64,000 nt of DNA, from positions 2,883 through 66,882 of the forward strand of contig CAZGGU010000003.1 of the NCBI GenBank assembly GCA_964525395.1. Reading direction: 5' to 3'. Each line of letters opens with the position of its first letter. Position 1 is the first letter of the stretch. This document shows positions 10,693-40,780 of this stretch, one piece after another. This DNA comes from an uncultured Gammaproteobacteria bacterium (GTDB taxonomy: Bacteria; Patescibacteriota; Microgenomatia; Levybacterales; UBA12049). The notes beneath the pieces were generated by a model, which had not been told where the DNA came from, did not search any database, and was given only the letters and a program-made list of their open reading frames with translations. A program made the position numbers and the translations under genes.

Positions 10693-11454
10693 GTGGCTAA
10701 TAAAGTTTTTCTTTCTGTGGTTATTCCTTCATACAACGAGAAGGTCAATTTACGTAAAGGCGTCTTAGATAAGATTGATCACTACCTCTCCAAACAGAAG
10801 TTTTCCTACGAAGTAATCATTGTAGATGATGGTTCAGATGATGGTTCTGCTGAGTTTGCTGAGAAATATGCGAAAGAAAATAAGCATTTCGAGCTCATAA
10901 AAAGTCCTCATATGGGAAAAGCTGGAGCAGTCACACAGGGAATGCTTAGAGCTGAGGGGGAGTATAGATTGTTTACTGATATGGATCAGGCTACTCCGAT
11001 TGAAGAAGTAGAGCAGCTCTTGCCATTTTTCGAAGAAGATTTTGATATCGTAATTGGTTCTCGAAAAACCAGTAGAAAAGGTTCTCCGTTGTCTCGAAGA
11101 GTTATGTCTAGAAGTATGATTGTTCTTCGTAAAGCATTGGTGGGCATGAATAATATCGAAGATACCCAGTGTGGATTTAAAATGTTTAAAGCCAGTGCAT
11201 CTGACAGAATCTTTAAAAGAATTAATGAGCTGCATCAAGGGTTCACGAAAATTTCCGGATCTAATGTGACTGCTGGATTCGATGTCGAGCTTCTAATCTT
11301 GGCTACTAAAATGGGATACAGAATTATTGAAGTTCCAGTGGAGTGGTATTATGTAGAAACCAGAAGAGTAAGTCCGATTTCAGATTCCATAAATGGTTTA
11401 AAAGATTTAGTTTCTATCAGCATGAGTAAGCATGCAGGTAAGTACAATTCATGA
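10693..11454 (+). CDS. GT2 polyprenyl-phosphate sugar synthase-like glycosyltransferase (Dpm1/CsbB/GtrB-like)
   Basis: LSVVIPSYNE...YEVIIVDDGSDDGS...TDMDQATP...IVIGSR. The track ORF starts at TTG 10678. GTG 10693 is preferred because of the -10 position. Confidence 0.8.
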   Translation: MANKVFLSVVIPSYNEKVNLRKGVLDKIDHYLSKQKFSYEVIIVDDGSDDGSAEFAEKYAKENKHFELIKSPHMGKAGAVTQGMLRAEGEYRLFTDMDQATPIEEVEQLLPFFEEDFDIVIGSRKTSRKGSPLSRRVMSRSMIVLRKALVGMNNIEDTQCGFKMFKASASDRIFKRINELHQGFTKISGSNVTAGFDVELLILATKMGYRIIEVPVEWYYVETRRVSPISDSINGLKDLVSISMSKHAGKYNS

Positions 11455-12629
11455 TTAAGAGAAATTTAGCCTACACGTATTTTATTGCAGTTATTGCACT
11501 TTTCTTCTATTCTTTTACTCAAGTTGACCTAAGCTTAACTTTATCTAGTTCTGGTATTGCTCAAACAATTCAAAAAAGTTTTCAGCAGATCGGCTATTTT
11601 AATCGGCCACTTTCCACAGAAATATATATTATTATCTTAATTGCTCTTTTTGGGTTTTATATTTATTTTTTATATTTAGCTTATAAAAATAAGATTGATA
11701 AGAAAAAAATTTGGATACTTATTATTGGCACAGCCATAATTCTGGCACCTTCGTATACAGCATTTTCCTACGACATTTTTAACTATATATTTGATGCAAA
11801 AATAATTACCCATTATCACCAAAATCCTTATTTTCATAAAGCGCTAGACTATCCGGGAGATCCAATGCTTTCCTTTATGCACTGGACTCACAGGCTCTAT
11901 CCATATGGCCCCGCTTGGTTAGTAGTGACTGTTCCATTTTCATTTATAGGAATGAATATTTTCGTAGTAACTTATTTCTTGTTTAAGTTATTGATAGTCG
12001 CTTTTTATCTAGGGTGCGTTTATTTAATCGGTAAAATATCTCAAAAAATCGATCCTAAATCAGAAAAGTTTAATTTAATTTTATTTGCATTAAATCCTTT
12101 GGTAATAATTGAAGCATTAGTGACTTCTCATAATGATGTGGCGATGATTTTTTTAGCGCTTTTTGGAGTTTTTTTGTTCTTTTTAAGAAAAAGAATTTGG
12201 GCAATAATACTAATAATTATTTCTGCAATGATAAAGATACCGACTTTAGTTCTTCTTGCGCCCATTGTAATATCGTTTGCGCCAAATATTAAAGAAAGAC
12301 TTGATGACCAGAAATATATGTGGTTATTTTTGTTGTTCTCAGTTGGGGGGCTTATTTATTCTATGACCAAGCTTGAAATTCAACCGTGGTATTTCTTATG
12401 GGTGTTGCCATTCGCATGCTTACTTAAGCCAAACAGATATATAATTGCCTTAATAATTGGAATCACCTTCGGACTACTTATCCGTTATGCTGAATTTCTT
12501 TTTTATGGAAATTGGGACGATGTGATCTTGCGAAACAGTATGACGATTGCTGCGATACTTTTTCCAATCTCTTTAGTTTGTATTTATGATTTTCTTCCAA
12601 AAAATTTAAAAGTTGGAAGCAAAAAGTAA
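11451..12629 (+). CDS. polytopic membrane protein (about 10 TM), likely GT-C-like glycosyltransferase or accessory protein
   Basis: 392 aa and highly hydrophobic. Start overlaps the preceding stop. Confidence 0.55.
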   Translation: MIKRNLAYTYFIAVIALFFYSFTQVDLSLTLSSSGIAQTIQKSFQQIGYFNRPLSTEIYIIILIALFGFYIYFLYLAYKNKIDKKKIWILIIGTAIILAPSYTAFSYDIFNYIFDAKIITHYHQNPYFHKALDYPGDPMLSFMHWTHRLYPYGPAWLVVTVPFSFIGMNIFVVTYFLFKLLIVAFYLGCVYLIGKISQKIDPKSEKFNLILFALNPLVIIEALVTSHNDVAMIFLALFGVFLFFLRKRIWAIILIIISAMIKIPTLVLLAPIVISFAPNIKERLDDQKYMWLFLLFSVGGLIYSMTKLEIQPWYFLWVLPFACLLKPNRYIIALIIGITFGLLIRYAEFLFYGNWDDVILRNSMTIAAILFPISLVCIYDFLPKNLKVGSKK

Positions 12630-12632
12630 ACT

Positions 12633-14189
12633 ATGTATAATCAAATGATGGAAATGATACTGAAATATAAAAAAGAAATTTTAGCAGCTGTTGGGCTTAT
12701 TATTTTATATTTTGTAACACGCCTTGTTTTGCTCGGAAATTTCCCAATCTTCACAGATGAGGCAATTTATATTCGTTGGACACAAATTGCTGCCAATGAC
12801 GCAACCTGGAGGTATATTTCTTTGACGGACGGAAAGCAGCCTATGTTTGTTTGGTTGGGAATGCCACTGCTTAAGTTTATTTCTGATCCACTGGTTGCGG
12901 GTAGATTAGTTTCGGTGGCAGCAGGTTTTTTTACGTTAATTGGATTATTTCTTCTTACTTATGAACTGTTTAAAAATAGATTTACAGCGTTTCTCGTCTC
13001 CCTTTTATATTTAGTTTTCCCCTTCGCAGTAGTTTATGACAGAATGGCTCTGTATGATAGTTTGGTGGCAGCATTTGCTGTATGGGCGATTTATTTTTCA
13101 GTACTTTTAGTCAGAAAAGTAAGATTAGACATTGCTCTAATTTTGGGATTTATTATTGGCGGGGGGATGCTGACGAAATCTAATGCTAATTTTAGTATTC
13201 TAATGCTGCCATTTACATTACTTCTTTTTAATTTTAAAGAAAAAAAATGGAAAGCTCATCTAATTAGATGGGGAATTTTTGTTTTACTTGCTGTAGTAAT
13301 GGCAGAAGTCATTTATAACTTTTTAAGACTATCTCCTTTTTTCCACATTATTAAAGAAAAGAATCAGACCTTTATTTATTATCCATTAAGTATTCCAATT
13401 TCTCAAAATATTGAACTTTTCTTTGGAAATCTCAAGGGATTATTAAATTGGCTGCTAACTTATTTAACTCCTGCATATATTGTTTTAATTATTATTTCTA
13501 TTTTTACTTTTAAATTTTGGAGAGAAAGAATATTATTATTTTTATATTTCCTTGCCCCTTTTATGGCACTTGCACTTTTTGGTAAGGTAATCTTCCCAAG
13601 ATTTATTTTCTTCATGAGCATTTATCTTCTGCCGCTTGCTGCTTTTGGTTTAACAATAGCAATTGATTGGGTAAATAAATTTATGAAAGAGAGAAAAATG
13701 AATATGCCCTATGTAATTTCAGCACTGCTTATAATTGTTGTAATTATTTATCCTATTAAAATTTCACTGGATTTTATTTTCAGTCCTGCAAATGCAAAGA
13801 TTGCAGATGCTGATGTGAGGCAGTTGATTTCAGAATGGCCAGCAGGGGGAGGAGTGAAAGAAAGTGTGGAGTTTTTCGAAAATGAGTCTAAAAAAGGAAA
13901 AATCTTAGTAGCAACTGAGGGAACATTTGGTCTTATGCCAGGAGCACTAGATATCTATTTAGGAGATAATCCAAATATCAAGACTGTAGGAATTTGGCCA
14001 ATCGAGCAGTTCCCTGAGGAGCTAAGTGAATCCGCTAAGACGATGCCTGTGTACTACGTGTTCTATCAACCGTGTCCTTCATGTGAATTCTCAGGAGATG
14101 CTCCTAATGAATATCCTTTAGAGTTGGTAAAGCAATATAAGAAAGCAGATAATGTTTATTACTCAATCTATAAAGTGAAAAATCAATAA
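12633..14189 (+). CDS. GT-C family membrane glycosyltransferase (ArnT/PMT-like, GT39/GT83)
   Basis: N-terminal loop FTDEAIYIRWTQ...DGKQPMFVW resembles the ArnT/PMT DE...Y...KPP motif. About 11 TM plus a C-terminal soluble domain. TATAAT at 12636 suggests an internal start around ATG 12645/12648. Confidence 0.65.
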   Translation: MYNQMMEMILKYKKEILAAVGLIILYFVTRLVLLGNFPIFTDEAIYIRWTQIAANDATWRYISLTDGKQPMFVWLGMPLLKFISDPLVAGRLVSVAAGFFTLIGLFLLTYELFKNRFTAFLVSLLYLVFPFAVVYDRMALYDSLVAAFAVWAIYFSVLLVRKVRLDIALILGFIIGGGMLTKSNANFSILMLPFTLLLFNFKEKKWKAHLIRWGIFVLLAVVMAEVIYNFLRLSPFFHIIKEKNQTFIYYPLSIPISQNIELFFGNLKGLLNWLLTYLTPAYIVLIIISIFTFKFWRERILLFLYFLAPFMALALFGKVIFPRFIFFMSIYLLPLAAFGLTIAIDWVNKFMKERKMNMPYVISALLIIVVIIYPIKISLDFIFSPANAKIADADVRQLISEWPAGGGVKESVEFFENESKKGKILVATEGTFGLMPGALDIYLGDNPNIKTVGIWPIEQFPEELSESAKTMPVYYVFYQPCPSCEFSGDAPNEYPLELVKQYKKADNVYYSIYKVKNQ

Positions 14190-15851
14190 ATGAGAAAAGT
14201 ATTTATTTTTTATTTTTTTGTATTAGTTTTCTCACTGTTAATTTCTCTCCCTCTCTTAATTCCATATTTTCATCCCGGATATTTCCCTACTCATGATGGC
14301 GAATGGGCAGTAGTGCGTTTGGCGGATATGTTTCGTGAGGTAAAAGACTTGCAGTTTCCTCCACGATTTAGTGCAAATTTGAATTTCGGCTATGGCTATC
14401 CTCTCTTTAATTTCGCATATCCTCTTCCATATTATATGGGAGTATTCATTCATTCAGTCGGGTTTAACTTCGTCGACACCATAAAAATAATCTTTGCTGC
14501 CTCAATTCCTTTGTCTGCATTCTTTATGTTTCTGGCTTCACGTTCTATTTGGAAAAATGATTATGCTGGAATAATTAGTGCAGTTTTATATTTATATTTT
14601 CCATACCGATTAGTAGATCTTTATGTGCGAGGATCCATTGGGGAGTCAGTGACTTTTGTATTGTTCCCAATTATTTTATTCGCGCTAAGTAAATTAAATG
14701 AGAAGCCAAAAGCATGGGGTTATGTGTTGCTTGGAGGTGTTTCTTTTGGTTTATTAATTTTGGCTCACAATATTATGTCAGTGTTGTTTAGTATTTCAGT
14801 TCTTATTTTCTTTTTGGCATCTCTTATTTCAGGAAGTAAAAAGATTTTTTGGTCATATGTTTTTACTGGTGGTTTAGGTTTCATTCTTTCTGCATTTTTC
14901 TGGATACCAGCGCTTCTTGAGAAAAATAATATTTTGCTTTCTGTTGTTCCTATTTCTGATCGAAATTTATATTTCGTAAACATAAAACAATTGCTTTTTT
15001 CTCCATGGGGCTATGGGGTGCCTACAGATATACAAAACGGATTTACTTATCAAGTGGGCTGGCCATTCTTATTAGTTTTATTATTAGCTTTACTAATTAT
15101 TGCTTATAAAGCATTCCAAAAAATAAAAATTGATGAGATGGATAAATTTTCCTTGGTAATCCTTATAGGAATATTAGTCTTTTCAATCCTAATGTTCTCT
15201 TTCACGAAACCTATTTGGAAACTTCCTATGCTTTCTGAGATTAATTATCCTTGGACAATTCTTTCTCAAATTGGTTTATTAACTTCAATGCTCGCGGGAT
15301 ATTTAGTGCTGGGTAAGATTTCAAGATATGTAGCATTTGGGATCGCGCTTTTAGCTCTTCTTTTGTATTTACCACTTGCTAAGCCATCAGTTTATTTTGA
15401 TAAAGGTGACGGTTTTTATTTTACAAATCAAGGGACCACCACGTCATCAAGTGAGTTAATGCCGCTCTGGGTAAAATCTCATCCAGTTTCAAGCCCAGTA
15501 GAGAAGATTGAAATATTAAAAGAGAAAGGGAAAATCGAAAATTTAATGGTTAAGTCGAACAAGATTATATTTAATGCAAATCTTGAAAATCCAGCGACTG
15601 TACGAATAAATACTATTTATTATCCAGGGTGGAAAATTACAAATAATGGAAAACCTGTAGAAATTAATTATCAAAATCAGCACGGCGTGATGGAGGTTGA
15701 TCTTCCTCAGGGAGCAAATATTGTTGAAGCAAAGTTCGGGGAAACAAATTTACGTTTGCTTGCTGACTTAATGAGCTTAGTGGGTATTGGTGTTGTTATC
15801 GTTGTTGCAATATATTTAATTGTCCCTAAAATTAAAAAATGGAAAAAGTAA
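14190..15851 (+). CDS. YfhO-like polytopic membrane protein (GT-C fold)
   Basis: HDGEWAVVRLADMFRE...FPPRFSANLNFGYGYPLFNFAYP resembles the YfhO N-terminal loop motif (remembered, not searched). Paralogue of the next gene. Confidence 0.6.
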   Translation: MRKVFIFYFFVLVFSLLISLPLLIPYFHPGYFPTHDGEWAVVRLADMFREVKDLQFPPRFSANLNFGYGYPLFNFAYPLPYYMGVFIHSVGFNFVDTIKIIFAASIPLSAFFMFLASRSIWKNDYAGIISAVLYLYFPYRLVDLYVRGSIGESVTFVLFPIILFALSKLNEKPKAWGYVLLGGVSFGLLILAHNIMSVLFSISVLIFFLASLISGSKKIFWSYVFTGGLGFILSAFFWIPALLEKNNILLSVVPISDRNLYFVNIKQLLFSPWGYGVPTDIQNGFTYQVGWPFLLVLLLALLIIAYKAFQKIKIDEMDKFSLVILIGILVFSILMFSFTKPIWKLPMLSEINYPWTILSQIGLLTSMLAGYLVLGKISRYVAFGIALLALLLYLPLAKPSVYFDKGDGFYFTNQGTTTSSSELMPLWVKSHPVSSPVEKIEILKEKGKIENLMVKSNKIIFNANLENPATVRINTIYYPGWKITNNGKPVEINYQNQHGVMEVDLPQGANIVEAKFGETNLRLLADLMSLVGIGVVIVVAIYLIVPKIKKWKK

Positions 15852-17545
15852 AAAAACACATATTTTTTATTCTAGTAATCCTGCTTAGTTTTTTTGCTAT
15901 TGCTGCGCTTTTGCAGCCAGGTTTTTTTCCAATTCACGACGATGAGCAAGTCGGGAGACTTTATGAGTTAAATTATTCGCTTGAATCATTACACATTCCT
16001 CCAAGAATTTCTCAGAATTTAGGCTTCGGATATGGATATCCATTTTTTAATTTTTATCCCTCTTTTGTTTATTATGTAGGTGAGATATTTGTTCTACTTG
16101 GTTTTTCCTACATTGTCTCGATAAAAATAATGGTTGGCTTAGGTTTTGTTTTATCCGCATTGTTCATGTACTTATTCTCACGTCGGCATATAGGTGAGTT
16201 AGGAGGGCTGGTGGCATCTGTTTTGTATTTATATGCACCTTACCACAGCTTAGACGCTTATGTAAGGGGAGCATTTCCTGAATTTTGGTCCTTTGTTTTT
16301 ATTCCTGCTGTATTTTGGGCAATTGATAGGACTTATAAAAACAGTTCAGTAGGAAACATAGTTTTATTGGGATTCTTGGGAGCATTCCTAATGCTTACTC
16401 ATAATCTGATTACTCTAATGTCGATTCCTTTTTTCTTTTTATATTATTTATTCATTCTTTATAAAAATAAAGAAAAAAAGAATATCACTGTCTCACTTAT
16501 TTCGGGAGGGATTATCGCACTATTATTATCTGCGTATTTTTGGATTCCGGCAATTCTAGAAAATAAATATACAATGGTGAGTTTACTTACTAATCAATTA
16601 GCTAGTTATGGATTGCATTTCGTATCACTTCCACAGTTTATTAATTCTCCTTGGGGGTATGGTGGTTCCATTTTGGGGCCAATGGACGGATTTTCATTAG
16701 AGATAGGAAAGATTCAGTTAATTTTAGCTGGAGCCGTCGGAATATTTATTTTAATTAGTATTGCTCGAAAAAAATACAAAATCGATATTGCTTTACTTTT
16801 TCTTATTATGTTTGCTCTGTCTGTATTTTTGCAGTCATATTATTCAAAATTTATTTGGGATCATATATTTGCTCTTTCATATATTCAGTTTCCATGGAGA
16901 TTCATGCTTTTTTCTGTATTTACCTCAGCTTTTCTCGGAGGATATTTATTCTCTTTGAAATTTGACTCTCGACTTAAATATATCTTCGCAACAGGACTTA
17001 TTATTGGAACAATAATTTTTTATGGAAGTTTGTTTCAGCCATCTAAATACCTGACTTCAGTCACCGACAAAGATTATATTGATCAATCAGTAATACGATG
17101 GAAAACAAGCGCAATGGCTTTTGAGTACGTTCCTGCGGGAATTGCTACCAAGAATTCGAGCTTGAATACGACAATTGTGGATATTGATCAGTCAGGAGTT
17201 GCAAAAGAAACTGCAACAGCGCTTGATGAGAATACTCTTGTAAATACATTGGTAGATAAGCCACAGTATAAAAAGATTGAGATTAATTCGGAAAAGGGTG
17301 GAAAAGTAAGAATAAATACATTTTCATTCCCAGGATGGAAGGTATTTATTAATGACCGTGAGACAGTATATAATGATGAAAATAAATTGAAATTGATCGA
17401 TATTACTGTCCCGGAAGGGAAATCGATAGTCGAAGTAAAGTTGACTGACACAAGTATTCGCCTAGTTGCTAACTTGTTAACTTTAATTGGATTGATTCTT
17501 GTAATTATTTCAGTTCCATTTTATTCTAGGAAAGTGAATTTATGA
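15839..17545 (+). CDS. YfhO-like polytopic membrane protein, paralogue of 14190-15851
   Basis: HDDEQVGRLYELNYSLESLHIPPRISQNLGFGYGYPFFNFYP. Similar C-terminal YYPGWK...VEVK region. Confidence 0.6.
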   Translation: MEKVKKHIFFILVILLSFFAIAALLQPGFFPIHDDEQVGRLYELNYSLESLHIPPRISQNLGFGYGYPFFNFYPSFVYYVGEIFVLLGFSYIVSIKIMVGLGFVLSALFMYLFSRRHIGELGGLVASVLYLYAPYHSLDAYVRGAFPEFWSFVFIPAVFWAIDRTYKNSSVGNIVLLGFLGAFLMLTHNLITLMSIPFFFLYYLFILYKNKEKKNITVSLISGGIIALLLSAYFWIPAILENKYTMVSLLTNQLASYGLHFVSLPQFINSPWGYGGSILGPMDGFSLEIGKIQLILAGAVGIFILISIARKKYKIDIALLFLIMFALSVFLQSYYSKFIWDHIFALSYIQFPWRFMLFSVFTSAFLGGYLFSLKFDSRLKYIFATGLIIGTIIFYGSLFQPSKYLTSVTDKDYIDQSVIRWKTSAMAFEYVPAGIATKNSSLNTTIVDIDQSGVAKETATALDENTLVNTLVDKPQYKKIEINSEKGGKVRINTFSFPGWKVFINDRETVYNDENKLKLIDITVPEGKSIVEVKLTDTSIRLVANLLTLIGLILVIISVPFYSRKVNL

Positions 17546-18252
17546 AAAAGTTGGATTCTTTATCAATCTTTTTTCCTTTTTGGAATGAAGGCAAAAATGT
17601 AGAAAATGTCGTAATGAGTGCAATTCCAGTAGCGAAGAAGATTGCGAAAAAATGGGAGATACTGATTATTGATGACGGCTCTAGAGATAACACCTTGGAT
17701 GTAGCGAAGAAGATTGCGAAAAAAGAACCTAATGTCAGAGTTATTTCCCACAGTCCTAACAGAGGTTACGGTGCTGCTCTTAAAGAAGGTTTTGAAAATG
17801 CGAAATATGATTATGTAGTGTTTACTGATGGAGATGCTCAATTCGATTTCGCAGAAATTGATAATTTCATTGAAGAAATAGATAAATGCGATATTGTTAT
17901 TGGTTATCGTAAGAAGCGACAAGATAATATCATTCGCCATATTTTAATGAATATGCTTAAAGCTTGGGATTATATTTTCTTCGGATTTTGGTTTAAAGAT
18001 ATAGATTGCGGATTTAAAATGTTTAAAAAAGAAGCCTTGGTTGAAATAATGCCATTTAGAAGTGAGGGAGCGATGATTACCACAGAAATTTTGGCAAAAT
18101 CAGTAAGAAAGAGGCTGAAAATTAAAGAAGTCGAGGTCACTCATTATCCTCGAAAATTTGGCAACCAGACAGGAGCCAATTTGGCTGTTATAATTAGAGC
18201 AGTCCTCGAAAGTCTGATACTTTGGTGGGACATAAGAAATAAAAGGATTTAA
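17542..18252 (+). CDS. GT2 polyprenyl-phosphate sugar synthase-like glycosyltransferase
   Basis: ILIIDDGSRDNT...GYGAALKEGF...YVVFTDGDAQFD. Contains an in-frame 24-bp direct repeat. Confidence 0.8.
   Translation: MKKLDSLSIFFPFWNEGKNVENVVMSAIPVAKKIAKKWEILIIDDGSRDNTLDVAKKIAKKEPNVRVISHSPNRGYGAALKEGFENAKYDYVVFTDGDAQFDFAEIDNFIEEIDKCDIVIGYRKKRQDNIIRHILMNMLKAWDYIFFGFWFKDIDCGFKMFKKEALVEIMPFRSEGAMITTEILAKSVRKRLKIKEVEVTHYPRKFGNQTGANLAVIIRAVLESLILWWDIRNKRI
17631..17726 (+). repeat. 24-bp exact direct repeat GTAGCGAAGAAGATTGCGAAAAAA (17631-17654 and 17703-17726), in frame, encoding VAKKIAKK twice
   Basis: Read directly in the sequence. The copies are 72 nt apart. Confidence 0.8.
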
Positions 18253-19747: not shown

Positions 19748-19753
19748 CGAAAA

Positions 19754-25981: not shown

Positions 25982-26679
25982 AATTATCAATAATCATTCC
26001 GGTTTACAACGAAGAAAAAACAATTGCAAAAATAATAGATCGCGTAAATGCGGTTAAGATTCCCGGTGTGCAGAAAGAAGTTATTGTTGTTGATGATGGG
26101 TCGACTGATAAAACAGTAAGTAAGATTAATAAAAATAAAGTTAAGTTTTTTGAAAACCCAGTAAATATGGGAAAGGGTGCAGCTGTAAAAAACGGGATTG
26201 ATCATGCTACTGGGGATTATGTAATTATTCAGGATGCTGATCTTGAATATGATCCCGAATTCATTAAAATTCTCATGAAGCCAATATTGGATAAAAAGGC
26301 AAAGGTGGTTTATGGAACAAGGCTTAAAAGAATGCCGCATTTTAAAGGAGAAGAGAAAAACTTCAGATTTTTACTTCATTATTTGGGCAATAGAGGTTTA
26401 AGTTTGGTAACAAGTGTTTTATATGGAAGCTGGATCACTGATATGGAGACATGTTACAAATTATTTCCAACGAAAGCTGGTAAGAATTTTAAGTTAAGAG
26501 CAAAAAGATTTGATTTTGAACCAGAGATTACTGCAAAACTCTTAAAAAAAGGCTATAAAATTTTAGAAGTTCCGATTACTACAATTCCGAGAGGATTCGA
26601 TGAGGGAAAAAAATTAAGAACATTTCATGATGGTTCAATTGCACTTTACACCTTAGTTAAATACAGGATTTATGATTAA
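25978..26679 (+). CDS. GT2 polyprenyl-phosphate sugar synthase-like glycosyltransferase (ArnC/GtrB/Dpm1-like)
   Basis: LSIIIPVYNEEKTI...EVIVVDDGSTDKT...GKGAAVKNGI...YVIIQDADLEYDP. Confidence 0.85.
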   Translation: MKLSIIIPVYNEEKTIAKIIDRVNAVKIPGVQKEVIVVDDGSTDKTVSKINKNKVKFFENPVNMGKGAAVKNGIDHATGDYVIIQDADLEYDPEFIKILMKPILDKKAKVVYGTRLKRMPHFKGEEKNFRFLLHYLGNRGLSLVTSVLYGSWITDMETCYKLFPTKAGKNFKLRAKRFDFEPEITAKLLKKGYKILEVPITTIPRGFDEGKKLRTFHDGSIALYTLVKYRIYD

Positions 26680-31670: not shown

Positions 31671-33386
31671 ATGAAGCTAAATAGAATTAAATTAAAAGTA
31701 AAGGAGTTAATAAAAAATCAGAATTTTTGGATATTTTTAGCCTTTTTTATCTTCGTAGCAGCGATATTTATAATTGATAGTAAGCATGAGAGATATCCTG
31801 ACGAATTTGACAATATTTTAGGTGGAAAGTACTTATTACAAGGTAAATTAATCTATAAAGATTGGTTTACTCATCATGGACCTTTTTCATATGTGGTTGC
31901 AGCTGTAGTAAATTTATTTAGCTTTAATTCCTTTGTTCTTTTTAGATTCTTCTATGCAATATTTTTACTTTTGCTAACATTTGGTTCATATTTTTATATC
32001 AAGTCTAGCCTTAAAACAGTTGAAACTAAATTTTATTTATTTTTTATATTCTTTTTGGGATTAGCATCAACATATTTCTGGGGACAAATGCTTCTCGCTG
32101 ATAATCTGGCAGCTTTTCTTCTAACTCCAGTTTTTGCATTGGTCTTTTTGAAATCAATCAATAATTTGAAGTTTAGTACAAAAGATTTTATTTTTATTTC
32201 AGTATTTTCATTCCTCGCGTTGATGAGCGCACTAACATATTCGTATTTAGTGGCGGGTGTTTATGGTTTTGTATTTATTTATTACTTATACCAAGAAAGA
32301 AGGAAGTCTGACCCAATATATTTATTGAAAATGATTGGTGTAATTCTATTGCCATTTGTTTTATTCCTACTTTATTTAATTGTCACGGGATCTTTAGGAA
32401 GCTATTTTTATGATGCAGTGAAATTTAATCGAGATTTTTATATCTACTATCCAGGATTTGAAGGAAAACCTCCCTCAAATCCAATTAGATACGGAATTAT
32501 CATGCTTCAAGGTTTTCATAATAATTTTTCTTCGATGATGCTAGGCGTTAGAGATTTCAATTTCACTTATCCATTTAACATTTCTCTAGGTGTCGCCAAT
32601 ACAGCTCTCGCAATTTATTTAATTCTTAAAAAGAAATATTTACCAGTTTTACTTCTCGTAGGTGTTTTAGTGTATGCAAATGCAAGAACTAATCCTTTTA
32701 GTTCTGCTGAAACTGACTATCAGTCAGCAGTTTACATAATGATCTCTCTTTTTAATCTTTGTTTCGTAATCCCTGCGCTTTATAGAGAAATAAACATTTC
32801 ATCAGATTCAGCTAAAAAAATTATTTGTGGAGTACTTTTTATACTGGTATTAGTTTATAGCTTTTTCTGTTTCACATTTATATTAAGAAAGTTTTCTTAT
32901 AAAGCTTATGATAAATATATGGGATTGGCTTCCTCTATCTATGACGGTCCTAGAATCGCACCTGTGATGAATAGAATTGTTCCTAGTGATCATTATTCCT
33001 GGATTGGTCCTTTTGCATTTGAAGATTTGTATTACTTAGATTCCAAAATCCCTTCTAGATATCAGGTTTTACTTCCAGGAATGGGTAAATCTGAGAAAAT
33101 TCCCGCTGAAATAATTTCAGATTTTGAAAAAAATAAACCTGACGTAATTTATTTTGATAAAGATTTCTTTATTTTAGGGGGTAATCCCGCAGTTTACGGA
33201 AAATTCTTTATGGACTTCTTAGGAGAGAATTATTACAAGCTTGATGAGATCGATAACGGAGCATATCAGTATTCCGATGGCGTTGATAGATCATTTTTAT
33301 TTGAACAAAAGCTTTATATAAGCAAAGATAAAGCGCCTGAGGTAGTTAAGCGACTTAAATCAGAAGGATTAATAATAAATAACTAA
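31671..33386 (+). CDS. GT-C-like polytopic membrane protein (ArnT-like N-terminal loop)
   Basis: DEFDNILGGKYLLQGKLIYKDWFTHHGPFSY fits the DE...Y...G...Y..(K/H)PP ArnT-type motif. About 12 TM plus a C-terminal soluble region. Confidence 0.55.
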   Translation: MKLNRIKLKVKELIKNQNFWIFLAFFIFVAAIFIIDSKHERYPDEFDNILGGKYLLQGKLIYKDWFTHHGPFSYVVAAVVNLFSFNSFVLFRFFYAIFLLLLTFGSYFYIKSSLKTVETKFYLFFIFFLGLASTYFWGQMLLADNLAAFLLTPVFALVFLKSINNLKFSTKDFIFISVFSFLALMSALTYSYLVAGVYGFVFIYYLYQERRKSDPIYLLKMIGVILLPFVLFLLYLIVTGSLGSYFYDAVKFNRDFYIYYPGFEGKPPSNPIRYGIIMLQGFHNNFSSMMLGVRDFNFTYPFNISLGVANTALAIYLILKKKYLPVLLLVGVLVYANARTNPFSSAETDYQSAVYIMISLFNLCFVIPALYREINISSDSAKKIICGVLFILVLVYSFFCFTFILRKFSYKAYDKYMGLASSIYDGPRIAPVMNRIVPSDHYSWIGPFAFEDLYYLDSKIPSRYQVLLPGMGKSEKIPAEIISDFEKNKPDVIYFDKDFFILGGNPAVYGKFFMDFLGENYYKLDEIDNGAYQYSDGVDRSFLFEQKLYISKDKAPEVVKRLKSEGLIINN

Positions 33387-34240: not shown

Positions 34241-34254
34241 TCTTCTTAACATTT

Positions 34255-34262: not shown

Positions 34263-34268
34263 AGAAAT

Positions 34269-35237: not shown

Positions 35238-36286
35238 AAATAGCAATTGATATTTCACCTTTAACTTCAGGACACAGTGTTCGTGGAACAGGTTTCTATT
35301 TATTAAATCTCAAGTCAGCACTCGAAAAATACTTTCCTGAAAACGAATATGTTTTTTTTAAAACTGAAGATGAAATCCCACACGATGCACAGCTAGTTCA
35401 TTTTCCTTATTTTGATCCCTTTTTCTTAAATTATCCTAAAACCAATTTACCTAGTGTAATTACAGTTCATGATTTAACGCCCATTGTTTTTAAAGATCAG
35501 TTTCCTGCTGGGATAAAAGGGAATATTAAATGGCAGGTGCAAAAAAGAAAGCTTAAGTCTACGAAAAATATAATTACAGATTCTCATGCTTCTAAAAAAG
35601 ATATAGTTAAGTTTGTTGGGCTACCTCAAAACAGTGTGGAGGTTGTCTATTTGGCTGCTGCAGAGCATTTTAAGCCAATTTCTAAATCGGAAAAAGAAAA
35701 AATAAATAAGAAGTTTAATCTTCCTAATAAATTTTTACTTTATGTGGGTGATGTTACCTGGAATAAAAACCTTCCAAACCTAATTAGAGCTGTTATTGAA
35801 TCTGATGTTAATCTAGTTATTGCTGGTAAAGCTTTTATAAATGAAGAGTATGATAAGGCTAATCCATGGAATAAAAGTTTTCACGAAGCTAAAGTGCTCG
35901 CAAGTTCAAGTGAAAAAATTAAAGCATTGGGTTTTATTTCAGATGTTGATTTAGTAGGGTTATATAACTGTGCCCTAGCTACCATTATGCCTTCATTTTA
36001 TGAAGGCTTTGGTTTACCTGTTCTTGAAGCAATGCAGTCAGGTTGCCCAGTTATCACATCAAAGCGAGGGTCACTTGAAGAAGTGGCTGGTAGCGCAGCT
36101 TATTTTATTGATCCCGACAGCACTCTTTCTATAAAAGAGGGGATACTGGAGGTTTTCTCTAATGATAATTTAAGAAAAGCAATGTCAAAAAAGGGCATTA
36201 TTCAAGCTAAGAAATTTAGCTGGAAGAAAACTGCAGAAGAGACACTAAAAGCTTATGAAAAAGTTATTCTTGAATCAGGAAGTTAA
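35234..36286 (+). CDS. GT4 (GT-B) glycosyltransferase
   Basis: MKIAIDISPL N-terminus. EGFGLPVLEAMQSGCPVITS C-terminal motif. Confidence 0.85.
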   Translation: MKIAIDISPLTSGHSVRGTGFYLLNLKSALEKYFPENEYVFFKTEDEIPHDAQLVHFPYFDPFFLNYPKTNLPSVITVHDLTPIVFKDQFPAGIKGNIKWQVQKRKLKSTKNIITDSHASKKDIVKFVGLPQNSVEVVYLAAAEHFKPISKSEKEKINKKFNLPNKFLLYVGDVTWNKNLPNLIRAVIESDVNLVIAGKAFINEEYDKANPWNKSFHEAKVLASSSEKIKALGFISDVDLVGLYNCALATIMPSFYEGFGLPVLEAMQSGCPVITSKRGSLEEVAGSAAYFIDPDSTLSIKEGILEVFSNDNLRKAMSKKGIIQAKKFSWKKTAEETLKAYEKVILESGS

Positions 36287-37421
36287 TGTTAGGATAATTG
36301 CAGTTTTGTTTATTGCATGGAAAATTTTAGATTTGGTTTCAATCTATTTTTCTTCACAAATTTTAAAACCTAGTAATTTCCCGTACAAGGATATACTTGC
36401 GAAATTTTACTTACCCCATACTATTACCTCTTTTGCTAATTTTGATGGAATTCAGTACATTACGATAGCAAAAGAGGGGTACTATAATTTCAGTCAAGCA
36501 TTTTTCCCTTTCTATCCTATCTTTATTAAATATGTAGCCTTGTTCTTGAACTACAATTACATACTTGCAGGCGTATTAATTTCAAATATATTTTTCTTCT
36601 TAGGACTTATTATATTTGCCAAATTATTAAGAGTGCTTAAATTTTCAGAAAATAACATATTATGGTCTATTTTATTTCTTTTATTTTTTCCTACTTCTTT
36701 TTACTTTGGCTCAGTATATGTGACTGGTTTTTTCTTCTTTCTATTAATAGTTTTCATATACTTAATGCATAAGAAGAGAATTATTGGGAATATTTTTATT
36801 GGGATAATAATGGGGCTCTCTACGATTAACGGTATTCTAGTTTCTATTTCTGTGATACCTCAGATAATACTGGAAAGAAAAATCGACAGAACACTAGTAG
36901 TCTATATTCTCAGTCCCATAGTCGGTCTTTTAATATATTCAGCATATTTATATCAATCTAAAGGAGATGCGATTTATTATTTGCATTCTCTCCCCGCATT
37001 TGGAGTGAATAGAAGTACTTCTATAGTATTTTTACCACAGGTTTTGTATAGATATATAAAAATATTCCTAACTTCCCAGATTAATTATCAATTATTTATT
37101 GCAGTATTAGAATTTATTTTTTTTAGTTTAGGTTTTTTCTTGATTCTTTATTTCCTTTACCTTGTTTTTAAAAAAAGAGAAAGTAAAAATTATAATACCT
37201 TGTTGTTTATTGGAATTTTTTCTTTAGCTAATATATTAATCTCAACACTAACGGGTACGTTGACCTCTACTCCTAGATATATTTTATATTCTTTGTCAAT
37301 ATTTGTAGTTTTACCTATCATTTTAAATAAAAGGTATGTTAAATTTATGGTTTTGCTGATATTCTTAGTATTGCATGTAATTCTTGTATCGTTTTTCTCT
37401 CAAGGGTATTTTGTTTCATGA
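36255..37421 (+). CDS. polytopic membrane protein, possibly PIG-V/GT-C-like mannosyltransferase
   Basis: FDGIQYITIAKEGYYNFSQAFFPFYP resembles the W/FDxxxYxxIAxxGY...AFFPLYP motif of that family (from memory). About 10 TM. Confidence 0.45.
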   Translation: MKKLFLNQEVNVRIIAVLFIAWKILDLVSIYFSSQILKPSNFPYKDILAKFYLPHTITSFANFDGIQYITIAKEGYYNFSQAFFPFYPIFIKYVALFLNYNYILAGVLISNIFFFLGLIIFAKLLRVLKFSENNILWSILFLLFFPTSFYFGSVYVTGFFFFLLIVFIYLMHKKRIIGNIFIGIIMGLSTINGILVSISVIPQIILERKIDRTLVVYILSPIVGLLIYSAYLYQSKGDAIYYLHSLPAFGVNRSTSIVFLPQVLYRYIKIFLTSQINYQLFIAVLEFIFFSLGFFLILYFLYLVFKKRESKNYNTLLFIGIFSLANILISTLTGTLTSTPRYILYSLSIFVVLPIILNKRYVKFMVLLIFLVLHVILVSFFSQGYFVS

Positions 37422-38701
37422 ATAAATATTTAAATTTAATAAAGGGATTCGGAAAGCACGAGCTGGTCAGTGGAAGTTTTTATGTATTTATTGGAACTAC
37501 GGTTTCAAGTTTCTTAGCCTTTGTTTTAAATATATTTTTTGCAAGAGAATTAACTTATGTTGAGTATGGTGTTTTGGCATCTTTATTGTCCCTCGTTACA
37601 CTTTTTACAATTCCAGCATCCTCACTTTCAGCAGTAATAGTACGATATGCCACAAATTTCTTTGCAGAAAAGAAAACAAAGCAGGCAGGAGCTCTTTATA
37701 AAAAATCATTTTTGTGGTTAATCGTCATCGGAATTGGTATAAATGTTTTATTTTTTCTTCTGTTTCCCATATTTTCTAATTTTCTAAAAATTGATAATTT
37801 GCCACTCGTAATGATTACAGCTATTTCTGTTTCCATGTTCTATTTCGCCACTCTTAATATGTCATTCATTCAAAGTATGCTTAAGTTTAGGTTGCTTGGT
37901 GTTTTGTATTCTATTGCCGGAGTCGGCAAATTAGTGGGTGGTGTGGTTCTTATCTTAATGGGATTTAATATTTATGGTGCGATTCTTGCAACATTTATTT
38001 TTTCATTTATTGATTTTGTTTTTGGATTATTTCCACTTAGGGAAACTATTAAAAATGCAGGAAAAGATGTGAAAATCGGAACTAGAGACTTTACATCCTA
38101 TGCAATTCCTACTTCTATAGCTGTGATTGCGCTTTCCTCGTTTATTGCGTCCGATGTGCTTTTAGTTAAGCATTTCTTTAGTCCATATCAAGCTGGCCTT
38201 TATGGAGGGTTAAATTTGGTGGGAAAAGTAATTTTTTACTTCACAGGTCCGATTGCTTTGGCAATGTTTCCTTTAATAGTTAAGAGGCATTCAAATAATG
38301 GAAATTTTAATAATCTTTTTTATCTTTCAATTGGGCTTGTTTTATTTTGCTCACTATTGATTACTGCATTTTATTTAATATTTCCAGAGTTTGTTCTTCA
38401 AATATTCTTGGGAGGGAAGCAGTATCTAACAATGGCGCCATATCTAGGAATTTTCGCTATCTTTCTAACAATCTTTAGTTTAAATAATGTTTTCGTTAGC
38501 TTTTTCTTATCAATTAAAAAAACGAATGTGTTTCCGATTGTAGTAATTTTTGCAGTTATGCAGATAGTTTTAATTTGTTTATATCATTCAAATTTTTATC
38601 AAATAATTTATATTTCTATTATCGTTTCGGCCTTGCTTCTGGCCTCACTTGTGATATATTATCTTAAGCTTTATGGTGGGATTTATCTTAAGAAAAAATA
38701 G
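37418..38701 (+). CDS. Wzx-like flippase / polysaccharide biosynthesis membrane protein
   Basis: 427 aa and about 12 TM. N-terminal amphipathic region plus hydrophobic repeats typical of the MOP family. Confidence 0.65.
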   Translation: MNKYLNLIKGFGKHELVSGSFYVFIGTTVSSFLAFVLNIFFARELTYVEYGVLASLLSLVTLFTIPASSLSAVIVRYATNFFAEKKTKQAGALYKKSFLWLIVIGIGINVLFFLLFPIFSNFLKIDNLPLVMITAISVSMFYFATLNMSFIQSMLKFRLLGVLYSIAGVGKLVGGVVLILMGFNIYGAILATFIFSFIDFVFGLFPLRETIKNAGKDVKIGTRDFTSYAIPTSIAVIALSSFIASDVLLVKHFFSPYQAGLYGGLNLVGKVIFYFTGPIALAMFPLIVKRHSNNGNFNNLFYLSIGLVLFCSLLITAFYLIFPEFVLQIFLGGKQYLTMAPYLGIFAIFLTIFSLNNVFVSFFLSIKKTNVFPIVVIFAVMQIVLICLYHSNFYQIIYISIIVSALLLASLVIYYLKLYGGIYLKKK

Positions 38702-38721
38702 TATTTATTCGCTTCTTTATT

Positions 38722-39459
38722 ATGGCAGTTGATTTGAGTCTAATCATGCCTGCCTACAAACAAGAAAAAACAATCGTTAAGGATATCAAAGAGATTGATA
38801 AAGTTCTCTCCACGCTTAAATTGAAATACGAAATAATCGTTGTTGTTGATGGGTTTGTCGATAAAACATTCCAAAAAGCCAAAAGAATTAAAAAAAGAAA
38901 AGTAAAAGTTATAGGTTACGAAAAAAATCTAGGCAAAGGATTTGCGATTAAGACTGGTGTTGAAAAAGCAAATGGAGATATTATTGGCTTCATCGATGCA
39001 GGAATGGATTTAGATCCCAGAGAGATAAAATATATGTTAGATATTATGTCCTGGAAAAATGCTGATATAGTTGTTGGAAGTAAACTTCATCCGGATTCAG
39101 TTGTAAATTACCCAATTAGCCGTAAAGTTATTTCATGGTGTTATAGATTGGTAACGCGTTCTTTATTTAATTTAAATATTAAGGATACACAGGTGGGTCT
39201 GAAAATTTTTAAGTATAAAGTTGCTAAGAAAGTTTTTCCCAAAATAGTAGTTAAAGCATTTGCATTTGATATAGAAGTTTTAGCAGTAGCTCACAGTTTT
39301 GGTTATAAGAAAATATATGAAGCACCTATTAGATTAAGATTTCGTCAAGGCAGTATTACGAATACCAATTTTTGGAAAGTGGGCTTTTGGACATTAGTTG
39401 ATACGATGGCCATATTTTACAGAATGCACATCATCAATTACTATAAAAAGAATGGGTAA
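38722..39459 (+). CDS. GT2 polyprenyl-phosphate sugar synthase-like glycosyltransferase
   Basis: LSLIMPAYKQEKTI...YEIIVVVDGFVDKT...GKGFAIKTGV...IGFIDAGMDLDP. Confidence 0.8.
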   Translation: MAVDLSLIMPAYKQEKTIVKDIKEIDKVLSTLKLKYEIIVVVDGFVDKTFQKAKRIKKRKVKVIGYEKNLGKGFAIKTGVEKANGDIIGFIDAGMDLDPREIKYMLDIMSWKNADIVVGSKLHPDSVVNYPISRKVISWCYRLVTRSLFNLNIKDTQVGLKIFKYKVAKKVFPKIVVKAFAFDIEVLAVAHSFGYKKIYEAPIRLRFRQGSITNTNFWKVGFWTLVDTMAIFYRMHIINYYKKNG

Positions 39460-40780
39460 GCTTCTTAAAAATAAATTTTTAGTTATTTTAGTGTCAATTT
39501 TACTTTTGGCATTTTTTCTAAGAGCTTATAACCTGACCAATTCTCCTCGACTTGGTGCAACTTTTGACGAATTCGCTTGGACATGGATAGGAATTAGTTT
39601 AATACAAGAGCATGTTCCTAGCTCTTGGTCTCCGCACCCTCAATACGAAGGACACAGGGAGTATAAGAAATACCTAAATGCAGATTTTTGGATAGTTAAG
39701 CCTTATCTTGAGCATCCACCCTTCTTTGGGCTTGTAGCAGGTTCTTTTGCGATCTTAAACGGGGCAGACGGGATGTTTGATGTGACTCTTGATAAAATTC
39801 GCCCACTGGCTCTTATTTTGGGTTTAGTATCAATTGGCACGTTATTTTTGCTAGTCAGAGAAATATATGATGAAAAAATTGCATTGCTCTCAACGCTTAT
39901 ATATGCCACTATTCCGACTGTGGTTATAGGATCACGCTTAGTCCAGAATGAGAATTTTTTTATCCCGATATATTTATCTGCTTTATTTTTAATTGCGAAA
40001 TATTTTAGAACAAAGAATAAGAAATTAATCTACATGTCAGCGGTATTGTGCGGATTGTTGGTTATTTCAAAAGTTCCTTGGATTGCAGCTTCAGTGGGAA
40101 TTATTTCCATATTGTTTTATAAGCAGAAATATAATTTGGGATTAAGAGTTGGATTGATTGTAGCTCTATTTTTCATTGGATATTTAATTTATGGATTATT
40201 TTTTAATTCTGATTTATTTTTGGGTCTTTGGGGTCTCCAGTTGCAAAGATATGACATTTCATTTAACAGCGTTTACGCTCTGTTTACAGAGCCGTATTTA
40301 ACTGATAGGTACTTCATTGATGGGTGGATATTTTTTGGGTGGTTTGCTTTTATTCTCTTATTGATTAAAGATTATAAAAAGAACATTGTAGTTATCCTTG
40401 GGCTGCTTGCATATTTAGGAATTTTTATTTTTGCAATTCCAAATGAAGCAGGTCATGGTTGGTATAGATATCCGTTTTATCCATTTCTTGCGATTTCTGT
40501 CGCATTATTTATAAAAGAATATTTTAATAAAAACATTCTTTTAACCTTTCTATTTATTTTACTTGTTGGATTGTCGATGCTTGAAGTTTCTTACGGAACA
40601 AAGTTTGGGTTTTCATTTTTAGTTTTTAGAGGATTTTTGTTTGTATGCGCTTTATCACTCTTGCCACTATTTTTTAGAAGTAATAATTTGTTAAAATTCT
40701 CGCACGGACTTAACTTTATATTGCTGATTGGAGTATTTGGTTTAAATGTCCTCGCTGTCCTCACATATCTAGAAATTTAA
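39452..40780 (+). CDS. GT-C-like membrane glycosyltransferase (ArnT-like)
   Basis: TFDEFAWTWIGISL...VKPYLEHPPFFG matches the ArnT YFEKPP-type motif. The track ORF starts at 39398. ATG 39452 (MGKLLKNKF) overlaps the preceding stop by 8 nt and is preferred. Confidence 0.6.
   Translation: MGKLLKNKFLVILVSILLLAFFLRAYNLTNSPRLGATFDEFAWTWIGISLIQEHVPSSWSPHPQYEGHREYKKYLNADFWIVKPYLEHPPFFGLVAGSFAILNGADGMFDVTLDKIRPLALILGLVSIGTLFLLVREIYDEKIALLSTLIYATIPTVVIGSRLVQNENFFIPIYLSALFLIAKYFRTKNKKLIYMSAVLCGLLVISKVPWIAASVGIISILFYKQKYNLGLRVGLIVALFFIGYLIYGLFFNSDLFLGLWGLQLQRYDISFNSVYALFTEPYLTDRYFIDGWIFFGWFAFILLLIKDYKKNIVVILGLLAYLGIFIFAIPNEAGHGWYRYPFYPFLAISVALFIKEYFNKNILLTFLFILLVGLSMLEVSYGTKFGFSFLVFRGFLFVCALSLLPLFFRSNNLLKFSHGLNFILLIGVFGLNVLAVLTYLEI

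Follow-up and report, generated by a model that had tools for sequence, protein, structure and literature searches.

Members of the Patescibacteria, or candidate phyla radiation, carry very small genomes and are thought to lead a life attached to other cells; of their surface chemistry very little is known. The question raised by a locus on contig CAZGGU010000003.1, analysed here as a stretch of 64 kb that we call the window, is whether its genes serve to glycosylate surface molecules outside the membrane from lipid-linked sugars. An original prediction, made from the sequence alone, had described four modules between positions 10693 and 40780, each a family GT2 synthase of the Dpm1/ArnC/GtrB kind followed within a few genes by GT-C-like membrane enzymes. 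Glycan genes do occupy that range, but the array extends further than was described: it runs unbroken and co-directional from 10693 to at least the window end, a locus of more than 50 kb (genes are named below by their first coordinate). The range 10693-40780 holds 24 genes, and the 11 that are of GT-C type make up ~58% of its coding length. We consider it likely that the locus is a multiplexed, GtrA-less form of the known three-component scheme of extracytoplasmic glycosylation, with copies in parallel.

The four GT2 synthase candidates

The four proteins that would charge the lipid carrier are the following (aa, amino acids; TM, transmembrane).

10693..11454, + strand: synthase 1, TM-less GT2 of the polyprenyl-phosphate glycosyltransferase class, 253 aa; PF00535 97 bits; PDB match PfDPMS (5mlz)
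17542..18252, + strand: synthase 2, TM-less GT2, ArnC-like, 236 aa; PF00535 101 bits; best PDB match ArnC; AlphaFold (AF2) model
25978..26679, + strand: synthase 3, TM-less GT2, DPMS/AglJ-like, 233 aa; PF00535 119 bits; AglJ model 115 bits
38722..39459, + strand: synthase 4, TM-less GT2 with variant donor-site motifs; PF00535 68 bits; best PDB match PfDPMS

All four genes lie where the original prediction had placed them, and all score above the PF00535 cut-off of 23.3 bits. The proteins measure 233-253 aa, and a hydropathy scan gave zero TM helices in each. In BLASTP comparisons they are mutual best matches (27-33% identity over ~200 aa) and form one subgroup among the 13 GT2 genes of the window, apart from the other nine. 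The motif layout that they had been said to share is exact for 25978 only. The metal-binding DxD motif reads DMD in 10693, DGD in 17542 and DAD in 25978; 17542 deviates in having FPFWNE and no proline trailing its DGD, and 38722 has YKQE, VVVDGF and DAG (the last followed by MDLD) in place of YNE, DDGS and DxD. That 38722 might be a decayed gene was considered in view of its DAG, VDGF and YKQ, and was rejected because close homologues keep the same variant.

Searches with phmmer against all PDB chains placed PfDPMS (5mlz) at the top for 10693 (9e-15), 25978 and 38722 (6e-15), the values spanning 6e-15 to 1e-14, and ArnC at the top for 17542 (8e-18, residues 6-210). The following ranks are held by ArnC, GtrB and DPMS for 10693 and 25978, and are interposed with a few other GT2 enzymes (chondroitin synthase, heparosan synthase) for 17542 and 38722. 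The alignment of 10693 to DPMS is limited to residues 6-166, and that of 38722 covers residues 3-208. A profile of the 25978 family (17 sequences) matched PfDPMS at 4.7e-29, with profile positions 1-226 on residues 23-248, ArnC at 7.6e-25 (positions 1-210) and GtrB at 2.7e-23, whereas chondroitin synthase, TarS-like and other GT2 structures aligned to positions 1 to ~120 only, the nucleotide-binding half. The AlphaFold model of 17542 (pLDDT 91.3) has a GT-A fold, and the top 19 matches found with it by Foldseek are ArnC, PfDPMS and GtrB, with a query-normalised TM-score (TMq) of up to 0.83 (ArnC 0.83).

The NCBIfam models draw the same line. All four synthases cover the short PpgS and haloarchaeal dolichyl-phosphate (Dol-P)-hexose transferase models nearly end to end, whereas the other GT2 proteins scanned gave no PpgS match and met the hexose-transferase model over its N-terminal half only; the best NCBIfam match of 25978 is AglJ, at 115 bits. 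By sequence, profile and predicted fold, the four GT2 proteins class with the polyprenyl-phosphate glycosyltransferases (DPMS, ArnC, GtrB) and not with processive synthases. The original prediction had taken them for Dpm1-like enzymes, and for each of the four the best structure match is indeed PfDPMS, ArnC or GtrB. Amphipathic helices follow the GSR motif in the synthases, although their scoring is weak and does not discriminate.

The GT-C enzymes

Eleven candidates of GT-C type fall in the range 10693-40780.

11451..12629, + strand: GT-C, MptA/MptB- and GT87-like, 392 aa, ~10 TM helices; PF09594 (GT87) 27.7 bits, cut-off 25
12633..14189, + strand: GT-C, PMT_2/ArnT-like, 518 aa, ~11 TM helices; PF13231 47 bits; TDE after the first TM helix (TM1)
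14190..15851, + strand: GT-C, PTPS_related, YfhO-related, 553 aa; PF10131 25.6 bits, just below the cut-off of 26.4; HDGE after TM1
15839..17545, + strand: GT-C, PTPS_related, 568 aa; PF10131 30.5 bits; HDDE; conserved neighbour of synthase 2
22815..25052, + strand: GT-C, YfhO family proper, 745 aa; PF09586 105 bits
26672-28360, 28357-29988 and 29975-31624, + strand: three paralogous PMT_2/PMT (ArnT-like) GT-C; Pfam 35-52 bits; WDE after TM1
31671..33386, + strand: GT-C-fold enzyme of a family without a Pfam model, 571 aa; D44, E45 and D47 invariant after TM1
36255..37421, + strand: GT-C, PIG-V/Gpi18-like mannosyltransferase family, 388 aa; homologues with PF04188
39452..40780 (start of the open reading frame (ORF) also given as 39398), + strand: GT-C, PMT_2-like; PF13231 47 bits; FDE after TM1

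The set comprises five PMT_2/ArnT-like proteins, two PTPS_related, one YfhO, one MptA/B-like, one PIG-V-like and one (31671) that has no Pfam family; the PMT_2, PMT, PTPS_related, YfhO, GT87 and PF04188 families we take to belong to the GT-C clan. Each candidate has ~10-16 hydropathy peaks. The Pfam cut-off is passed by 8 of the 11 (11451, 12633, 15839, 22815, 26672, 28357, 29975 and 39398/39452); the remaining three are 14190, just below it, 36255, placed via its homologues, and 31671. In most of them acidic motifs stand after TM1, as TDE, HDGE, HDDE, WDE (three times), PDEFDN and FDE; for 11451, 22815 and 36255 the check consisted of reading the sequence. The original prediction had proposed looking for DE motifs in loop 1, and they are present as TDE in 12633, WDE in 26672, 28357 and 29975, and FDE in 39452. 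The membrane proteins that it had named (12633, 14190, 15839, 26672, 28357, 29975 and 39398/39452) are each polytopic with a GT-C-clan Pfam match, and its assignment of membrane proteins to GT-C agrees with the family matches, the acidic motifs and the GT-C fold predicted for 31671. Its count of membrane partners was too low, since it had missed four GT-C enzymes of the range, including 11451, the true YfhO protein 22815, and 36255.

Several of the eleven call for comment on their family. NCBIfam matches 11451 to MptA (3e-14) and MptB (2e-7), and its orthologue in a Levybacteria contig (L084) bears PF26314, MptA_B_family. The proteins 14190 and 15839 are paralogues with 33% identity over their full length. 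They had been called YfhO-like; neither matches PF09586 (YfhO) at E-values up to 0.01, and both fall to PF10131 instead; a local jackhmmer search joins both to the YfhO protein 22815 and to the downstream protein 54485, and joins the PMT_2 group to 15839. An orthologue of 15839 also has a weak YfhO match together with PTPS_related. The three paralogues 26672, 28357 and 29975 share 34-36% mutual identity. The protein 36255 has no direct Pfam match; in its homologues (40-46% identity) PF04188 is present, and their names read mannosyltransferase family protein or Gpi18-like; on this ground the assignment of 36255 as a Wzy polymerase was rejected.

The homologues of 31671 number 181 (40-88% identity, ~575 aa), all unannotated or hypothetical. 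In 38 members of the family D44, E45 and D47 are invariant and form a D-E-x-D motif just past the first TM helix, and the AlphaFold model of 31671 (pLDDT 90.9) has a GT-C fold. On this predicted fold, the 31671 family is a GT-C family absent from Pfam and the current domain libraries.

Conservation of the array

Whether the GT2 and GT-C genes belong together is a question for related genomes, in which the following window genes recur beside them.

7719-10091: LonA protease gene, preceding the tRNA-Glu gene and the glycan array
19754-20668 and 20673-21416, + strand: two soluble GT2, not of the lipid-phosphate class (Pfam, NCBIfam, synteny); part of a conserved GT-C-GT2-MOP-GT2-GT2 block
25049..25981, + strand: soluble GT2, not of the lipid-phosphate class (Pfam); syntenic partner of 22815 and 25978

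The closest relatives of several window proteins are from Patescibacteria, chiefly Candidatus Levybacteria/Levyibacteriota, and the host is probably a Patescibacteria bacterium related to Levybacteria. The Levybacteria contig L084 has the order Lon, GT2, MptA/B-like, PMT_2, YfhO, an unannotated 522-aa gene, PTPS_related, GT2, MOP, GT2, GT2, with the orthologue of 10693 in the same place after Lon; identities to the window are 61% for 10693, 46% for 11451, 47% for 12633, 73% for 17542 and 58% for 18252, the MOP-type gene. A Parcubacteria contig (L085) keeps PTPS_related, GT2, MOP, GT2, GT2. The GT2-MOP adjacency is kept in all four contigs L082-L085, and the PTPS_related genes of L084 and L085 stand in the position of 15839. 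Altogether, the first 21 kb of the array is syntenic in Levybacteria-like and other Patescibacteria.

A second conserved block surrounds synthase 3. Four contigs (L002, L003, L005 and L006) keep YfhO, GT2, a short GT2 and then several PMT_2 genes at 45-64% identity, with orthologues of 22815 at 45-47%, and L004 and L007 keep parts only; orthologues of 26672, 28357 and 29975 occur in L002-L007. Large polytopic proteins number six to nine per 20 kb in each of L002, L003, L005, L006 and L007. The label of contigs L005, L006 and L007, 'uncultured Gammaproteobacteria', is probably wrong for these bins; their GT2/GT-C arrays are of Patescibacteria type (55-62% identity). The 25978 family is widespread (43-64% identity), with more distant orthologues (43-55%) in many phyla and in DPANN archaea.

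For 17542 the homologue clusters exceed 120 in number, with identities of 67-90% (including P0407-P0525), and their lengths are all 230-243 aa and nearly all 236-237 aa. Conservation of this degree is unusual for a gene of a glycan locus and suggests that its function in Levybacteria-like Patescibacteria is a core one and possibly essential.

An incidental clustering of envelope genes, without functional coupling of GT2 and GT-C, is favoured by the loci of distant 25978 orthologues, 45 of 69 of which have no large polytopic neighbour. In the relatives of the window, however, gene order is kept at 45-73% protein identity, reading frames overlap along the array, and GT2 and flippase parts are found fused; we therefore find incidental clustering hardly credible. 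The arrangement exceeds chance, to judge by the mutual best matches among the four GT2 proteins and by the recurrence of the layout in related genomes. The machinery had been called distinctive, which holds for the lineage and not for this genome: since the array is kept in related genomes, it is no one-off but characterises this lineage of Patescibacteria, in which it has formed around synthases that are widespread and otherwise stand alone. A literature search found nothing specific on GT-C or YfhO in Patescibacteria, nor any account of arrays of this kind; a paper on a Saccharibacteria genome notes, as an aside, three copies of a Dol-P-mannosyltransferase and a GT87 (PMC6031116).

Flippases and gene fusions

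A synthase and a GT-C enzyme on opposite faces of the membrane would need a carrier between them. Two genes adjoin synthases 2 and 4, and a third belongs to the same neighbourhood as synthase 4.

18252..19700, + strand: MOP/Wzx-type flippase, 482 aa; PF13440 154 bits; start overlaps the stop of synthase 17542
37418..38701, + strand: second MOP/Wzx-type flippase, 427 aa; PF13440, PF01943; directly upstream of synthase 38722
40780..41880, + strand: GT4 glycosyltransferase; PF00534 117 bits; homologous to the GT4 domain of MOP-GT2-GT4 fusions

The flippase predicted to follow 17542 is thus a MOP/Wzx-type protein with a strong PF13440 match. The second, 37418, had been overlooked; it ends 20 bases before the start of 38722. 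The predicted absence of a GtrA-type flippase stands for the window: the Pfam scans of its ORFs gave no PF04138 match, and no free ORF of 60-200 aa in it has more than two TM helices. It is plausible that the two MOP flippases take the place of GtrA; an earlier proposal had likewise put a flippase of the MOP superfamily into a three-component system (PMC11127046).

The link between flippase and synthase is also seen in natural fusions. The 38722 family was searched in 1.84 billion representatives, and the domains of the top 150 were surveyed. Among these, 59 proteins are of at least 400 aa; 13 of the 59 have a MOP domain, four a GT4 domain (including P0392, which also has MOP), and at least nine a second GT2 domain. 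Pfam confirms MOP-GT2 fusions in P0312, P0331 and P0338 and a MOP-GT2-GT4 fusion in P0392. In the window, 37418, 38722 and 40780 represent the three fusion domains as separate genes: the GT4 domain of P0392 (residues 684-1039) is 30% identical to 40780 over its full length (4e-62), and the MOP domain of P0338 aligns to 37418 (7e-15). The fusion-bearing homologues noted are P0312, P0331, P0338, P0392, P0273 and P0277, of the types MOP-GT2, MOP-GT2-GT4 and GT2-GT4. The second GT2 domain of the GT2-GT2 fusions was considered as a counterpart of the window gene 41877 and rejected, its best match, a weak one, being to the 25049-type GT2.

These fusions bring in a route of archaeal type. Dpm1-like GT2 enzymes would here initiate, as AglJ does in Haloferax, by placing the first sugar on a polyprenyl monophosphate, and soluble GT2/GT4 enzymes would extend it to a short oligosaccharide, which MOP flippases would export and GT-C enzymes would transfer or polymerise outside. 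It would concern at least the cassette 37418-38722-39452-40780 and perhaps 15839-17542-18252-19754-20673. The MOP-GT2-GT4 (P0392), GT2-GT4 and GT2-GT2 fusions of the 38722 family agree with it, as does the close match of the P0392 GT4 domain to the neighbouring gene 40780, and the conserved block always joins synthase and flippase to two soluble GT2. No phosphoglycosyl transferase (PF02397, PF00953) was found among the ORFs scanned in the 64 kb, AglJ is the top NCBIfam match of 25978, and AglJ, AglG, AglI and AglE acting on Dol-P provide a precedent (PMC3871713). A domain fusion, however, speaks for a shared pathway and not for a shared lipid intermediate, and a weak Wzy_C-like domain at 61299 hints at an additional, conventional pathway over undecaprenyl diphosphate (Und-PP). 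The initiating transferase may also sit elsewhere in the genome, the scan having covered 64 kb; in Gram-positive bacteria its gene often lies apart from the glycan locus. We are aware of no bacterial precedent for the assembly of an oligosaccharide on a polyprenyl monophosphate. We hold this sequence of initiation, extension, export and transfer, taken jointly, to be unlikely, if worth keeping in view. The same degree of doubt attaches to its broader form, a GT2-initiated route without a phosphoglycosyl transferase, in which a large, fast-diversifying set of GT-C enzymes, including the Pfam-less family, would hand oligosaccharides over outside.

A probable multiplexed three-component scheme

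In the scheme that we favour, with each step drawn from homology, predicted fold, synteny and fusions, four soluble, membrane-peripheral GT2 enzymes would charge polyprenyl (undecaprenyl) monophosphate, at the inner membrane face, with the sugar of a nucleotide-sugar donor. The lipid-linked sugars would then pass to the outer face, and the likely carriers, judged by gene adjacency, by the conserved synteny and by the fusions, are the MOP/Wzx-type flippases abutting synthases 2 and 4. There, 11 or more GT-C-fold enzymes, belonging to at least five subfamilies, would use the lipid-linked donors on acceptors outside the membrane, for which wall or membrane glycopolymers, lipoglycans and surface proteins are candidates. 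The soluble GT2/GT4 enzymes and the genes that modify sugar nucleotides would make the backbone glycan(s) and unusual donor sugars.

The original prediction had assigned to each synthase a module of its own by adjacency, and at least 11 GT-C enzymes stand against four synthases. The conserved blocks suggest three groupings: 10693 with 11451 and 12633; 15839-17542-18252-19754-20673; and 22815-25049-25978-26672/28357/29975. The donors had been taken for monosaccharides; in the module of 38722, to go by the hint from the MOP-GT2-GT4 fusions, they may be short oligosaccharides.

Several observations weigh against this scheme. The synthases do not reach the NCBIfam equivalog cut-offs in any of the four cases (best scores 60-115 bits, against 325-529 for ArnC, AglJ, PpgS and PgfS), and therefore none of the four GT2 proteins is an orthologue of a characterised synthase. 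The hydropathy scan found in none of them the C-terminal membrane hairpin of GtrB, ArnC and CsbB, although a TM-less synthase has a precedent in mycobacterial Ppm1, whose D2 domain alone is sufficient for synthase activity (PMC3485146). Synthase 38722 lacks the second Asp of DxD as well as YNE and DDGS. The fusions of its family to GT4 and to a second GT2 fit cytoplasmic chain extension better than monosaccharide donors, and none of its top 150 representatives is a GT2-GT-C fusion. In the wider phyla a large polytopic protein neighbours 24 of the 69 orthologues of 25978, so that the adjacency is lineage-specific. Finally, the cargo of the MOP flippases could be a different one, namely Und-PP-linked repeat units assembled by the many soluble glycosyltransferases.

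The last point leads to a conventional Wzx/Wzy locus, in which the GT2 proteins would act on Und-PP-linked units, the MOP proteins would be Wzx, and the polytopic proteins would be polymerases, ligases or other enzymes that do not depend on polyprenyl-phosphate sugars. The many soluble GT2/GT4 enzymes, the two Wzx-like proteins and the sugar-nucleotide genes do resemble O-antigen and capsule clusters, and the unreached equivalog cut-offs and the lack of a TM anchor in the synthases are equally in keeping with such a locus. Against this, the likeness of the synthases to DPMS, ArnC and GtrB, in sequence and in fold, runs through the acceptor half, and the polytopic proteins belong to the PMT_2, YfhO, PTPS_related, MptA/B and PIG-V families. 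In most of these families, the enzymes characterised so far are known to draw on polyprenyl-monophosphate sugars. In addition, the sole Wzy-like candidate of the range, 36255, is PIG-V-like, the window holds no initiating transferase (PF02397, PF00953), and its sole Wzy_C match, in 61299, lies below threshold. We consider a purely conventional locus quite improbable, more so than the archaeal-type route.

Comparison with known systems

The multiplexed scheme can be set beside five kinds of characterised system. GtrA-GtrB-GtrC glucosylate the O-antigen in Shigella and Salmonella, and CsbB/GtlA-GtcA-YfhO/GtlB act on lipoteichoic acid in Bacillus and Listeria (PMC11127046, PMC7389260, PMC5836110). 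As in these, a GT2 of the polyprenyl-phosphate class adjoins GT-C genes in the window, a YfhO member is present (22815), and lipid-linked donors would be used outside the membrane. Unlike these, the window has no small GtrA/GtcA flippase and adjacent MOP-type flippases instead, its synthases lack the two C-terminal TM helices, and in place of one of each component it has an array of four synthases and at least 11 GT-C enzymes.

In mycobacteria and corynebacteria, Ppm1 (D2) and PpgS feed the GT-C enzymes MptA, MptB, PimE, Pmt, Emb and Aft (PMC3485146). The window resembles this arrangement in its TM-less synthases, its many GT-C enzymes on few lipid-sugar donors, its MptA/MptB-like protein 11451 and the nearly full-length match to the PpgS model. 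It differs in that its scores lie far below the equivalog cut-offs and that no partner like Ppm1-D1 or Rv3632 was seen; moreover, the mycobacterial genes are scattered whereas those of the window are clustered, and the host is an unrelated, small-genome bacterium of monoderm type.

The pentofuranose system of Citrobacter youngae consists of a polyprenyl-phosphoribose synthase, a MATE flippase and a GT136 GT-C enzyme (PMC11127046). There too the flippase of the lipid-linked donor is proposed to be a MOP-superfamily transporter and not GtrA, and its gene adjoins those of the synthase and the GT-C enzyme. The Citrobacter synthase, however, is a phosphoribosyltransferase that uses phosphoribosyl pyrophosphate (PRPP) and not a GT2, and its flippase is of MATE type whereas those of the window are of Wzx/Polysacc_synt type.

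The AglD-AglR-AglS and AglJ/G/I/E-AglB systems of Haloferax volcanii offer a further parallel (PMC3871713). In the former, as proposed for the window, a Dpm1-like GT2 charges a lipid monophosphate, AglR serves export and AglS transfers outside. AglR is Wzx-like, and AglS is a GT-C enzyme. Unlike the window, the Haloferax systems are archaeal, dolichol-based and devoted to N-glycosylation, and the matches of window proteins to Agl models stay below cut-off.

With ArnC-ArnE/F-ArnT the window shares the closeness of 17542 to ArnC in sequence and fold and the ArnT-like character of its PMT_2 proteins. It departs from that system in having no ArnE/F flippase of the small multidrug-resistance type, no Arn sugar-nucleotide genes beside 17542, and no TM hairpin in 17542. 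To our knowledge, Patescibacteria have no lipid A.

The proposed mechanism is one already known, and the density of the array and the choice of flippase are notable rather than surprising. TM-less synthases (Ppm1-D2), a MOP-type flippase (Citrobacter, and AglR of haloarchaea) and many GT-C enzymes on few donors (mycobacteria) all have precedents; what is new is that an organism of small genome has so dense an array, along with the conserved GT-C-GT2-MOP-GT2-GT2 core block, the MOP-GT2(-GT4) fusions and the Pfam-less GT-C family. Since surface glycans take up more than 50 kb here, with ~58% of the 30-kb core given to GT-C enzymes, glycosylation outside the membrane would be a major investment for the organism. 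The locus also supplies gene sets for testing, namely anchor-less candidate lipid-sugar synthases, MOP flippases that possibly replace GtrA, and a GT-C family missed by the libraries.

Other genes and composition of the locus

The remaining genes of the array and its surroundings are these.

10574..10648, + strand: tRNA-Glu(CTC) (ARAGORN), between the Lon gene and the first glycan gene and directly upstream of the latter
21698..22822, + strand: GT4 glycosyltransferase; PF00534
33386-34240, + strand: soluble GT2 (Pfam)
34269-35237, + strand: NAD-dependent sugar epimerase/dehydratase (Pfam)
35234-36286, + strand: GT4 (Pfam)
within 41877..50527, + strand: GT2 enzymes 41877, 44769, 45736 and 48753 (Pfam), continuing the locus
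within 41877..50527, + strand: DegT aminotransferases 42806 and 47657 (Pfam)
within 41877..50527, + strand: FdtA-like protein with hexapeptide-transferase repeats, 46728 (Pfam)
within 41877..50527, + strand: methyltransferases 44065 and 49715 (Pfam)
50512-52812, + strand: further putative GT-C-type protein, 766 aa, ~16 TM helices; BLASTP match to 54485 only
between 50512-52812 and 54485-56497, + strand: membrane protein 52793 (no family) and methyltransferase 53742
54485-56497, + strand: further putative GT-C-type protein, 670 aa, ~12 TM helices; jackhmmer from 14190; weak PTPS_related match
61299..63998, + strand: polytopic ORF cut by the window end, at least 900 aa; weak Wzy_C match of 15.7 bits, below cut-off

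Weak similarities suggest that 50512, 54485 and 61299 probably add two or three more GT-C enzymes downstream. The first two share 24% identity (9e-6, BLASTP), and 50512 gave no match in Pfam, NCBIfam or PDB. In 61299 the N-terminal half looks O-antigen ligase/polymerase-like, with a large extracytoplasmic insert, and the C-terminal half looks like a GT-C enzyme of PMT_2 type, with GDDFTW following a TM helix; by its sequence, the protein may be a fusion.

The genes 42806-49718 form a sugar-nucleotide tailoring set with two DegT aminotransferases, the FdtA-like 46728 and methyltransferases, and an RmlC gene lies at 797-1336. A set of DegT, FdtA-like protein and methyltransferase is typical of 3-amino-3,6-dideoxyhexose pathways (Fuc3NAc/Qui3NAc type).

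The window has ~32% G+C, and from 7719 on nearly all genes are on the + strand, with stop and start codons often overlapping. Near Lon (6-10 kb) the G+C content is ~39-40%; in the locus it drops to 30-36%, and at ~44-58 kb it is as low as 26-29% save for a stretch of 33% at 46-48 kb. This fall along the locus suggests that its distal part is mosaic or horizontally exchanged. At 57748-58293 a 181-aa fragment retains the N-terminal GT4 domain only; it is followed by a gene for a 23S rRNA intervening-sequence protein (58325-58714), downstream of which lies a complete GT4 gene (58752-59882). The region 57748-59882 looks like a remnant or a rearrangement around an inserted gene.

Upstream of the locus, the ORF 3592-4620 (- strand) encodes 342 aa with ~9 TM helices, has no family match and adjoins one of two DUF1003 paralogues; 4621-5268 (- strand) and 7020-7520 (- strand) were noted alongside it. 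With its 9 TM helices, 3592-4620 was considered as an initiating phosphoglycosyl transferase and rejected, as it had no Pfam match even at E-values up to 1. Small two-TM ORFs lie in the only sizeable intergenic gaps of the locus, at 21413-21643 (- strand, 76 aa) and 57458-57679 (+ strand, 73 aa). At a comparable place, the Parcubacteria locus L085 has a DUF5652 gene (80 aa) that runs on the opposite strand.

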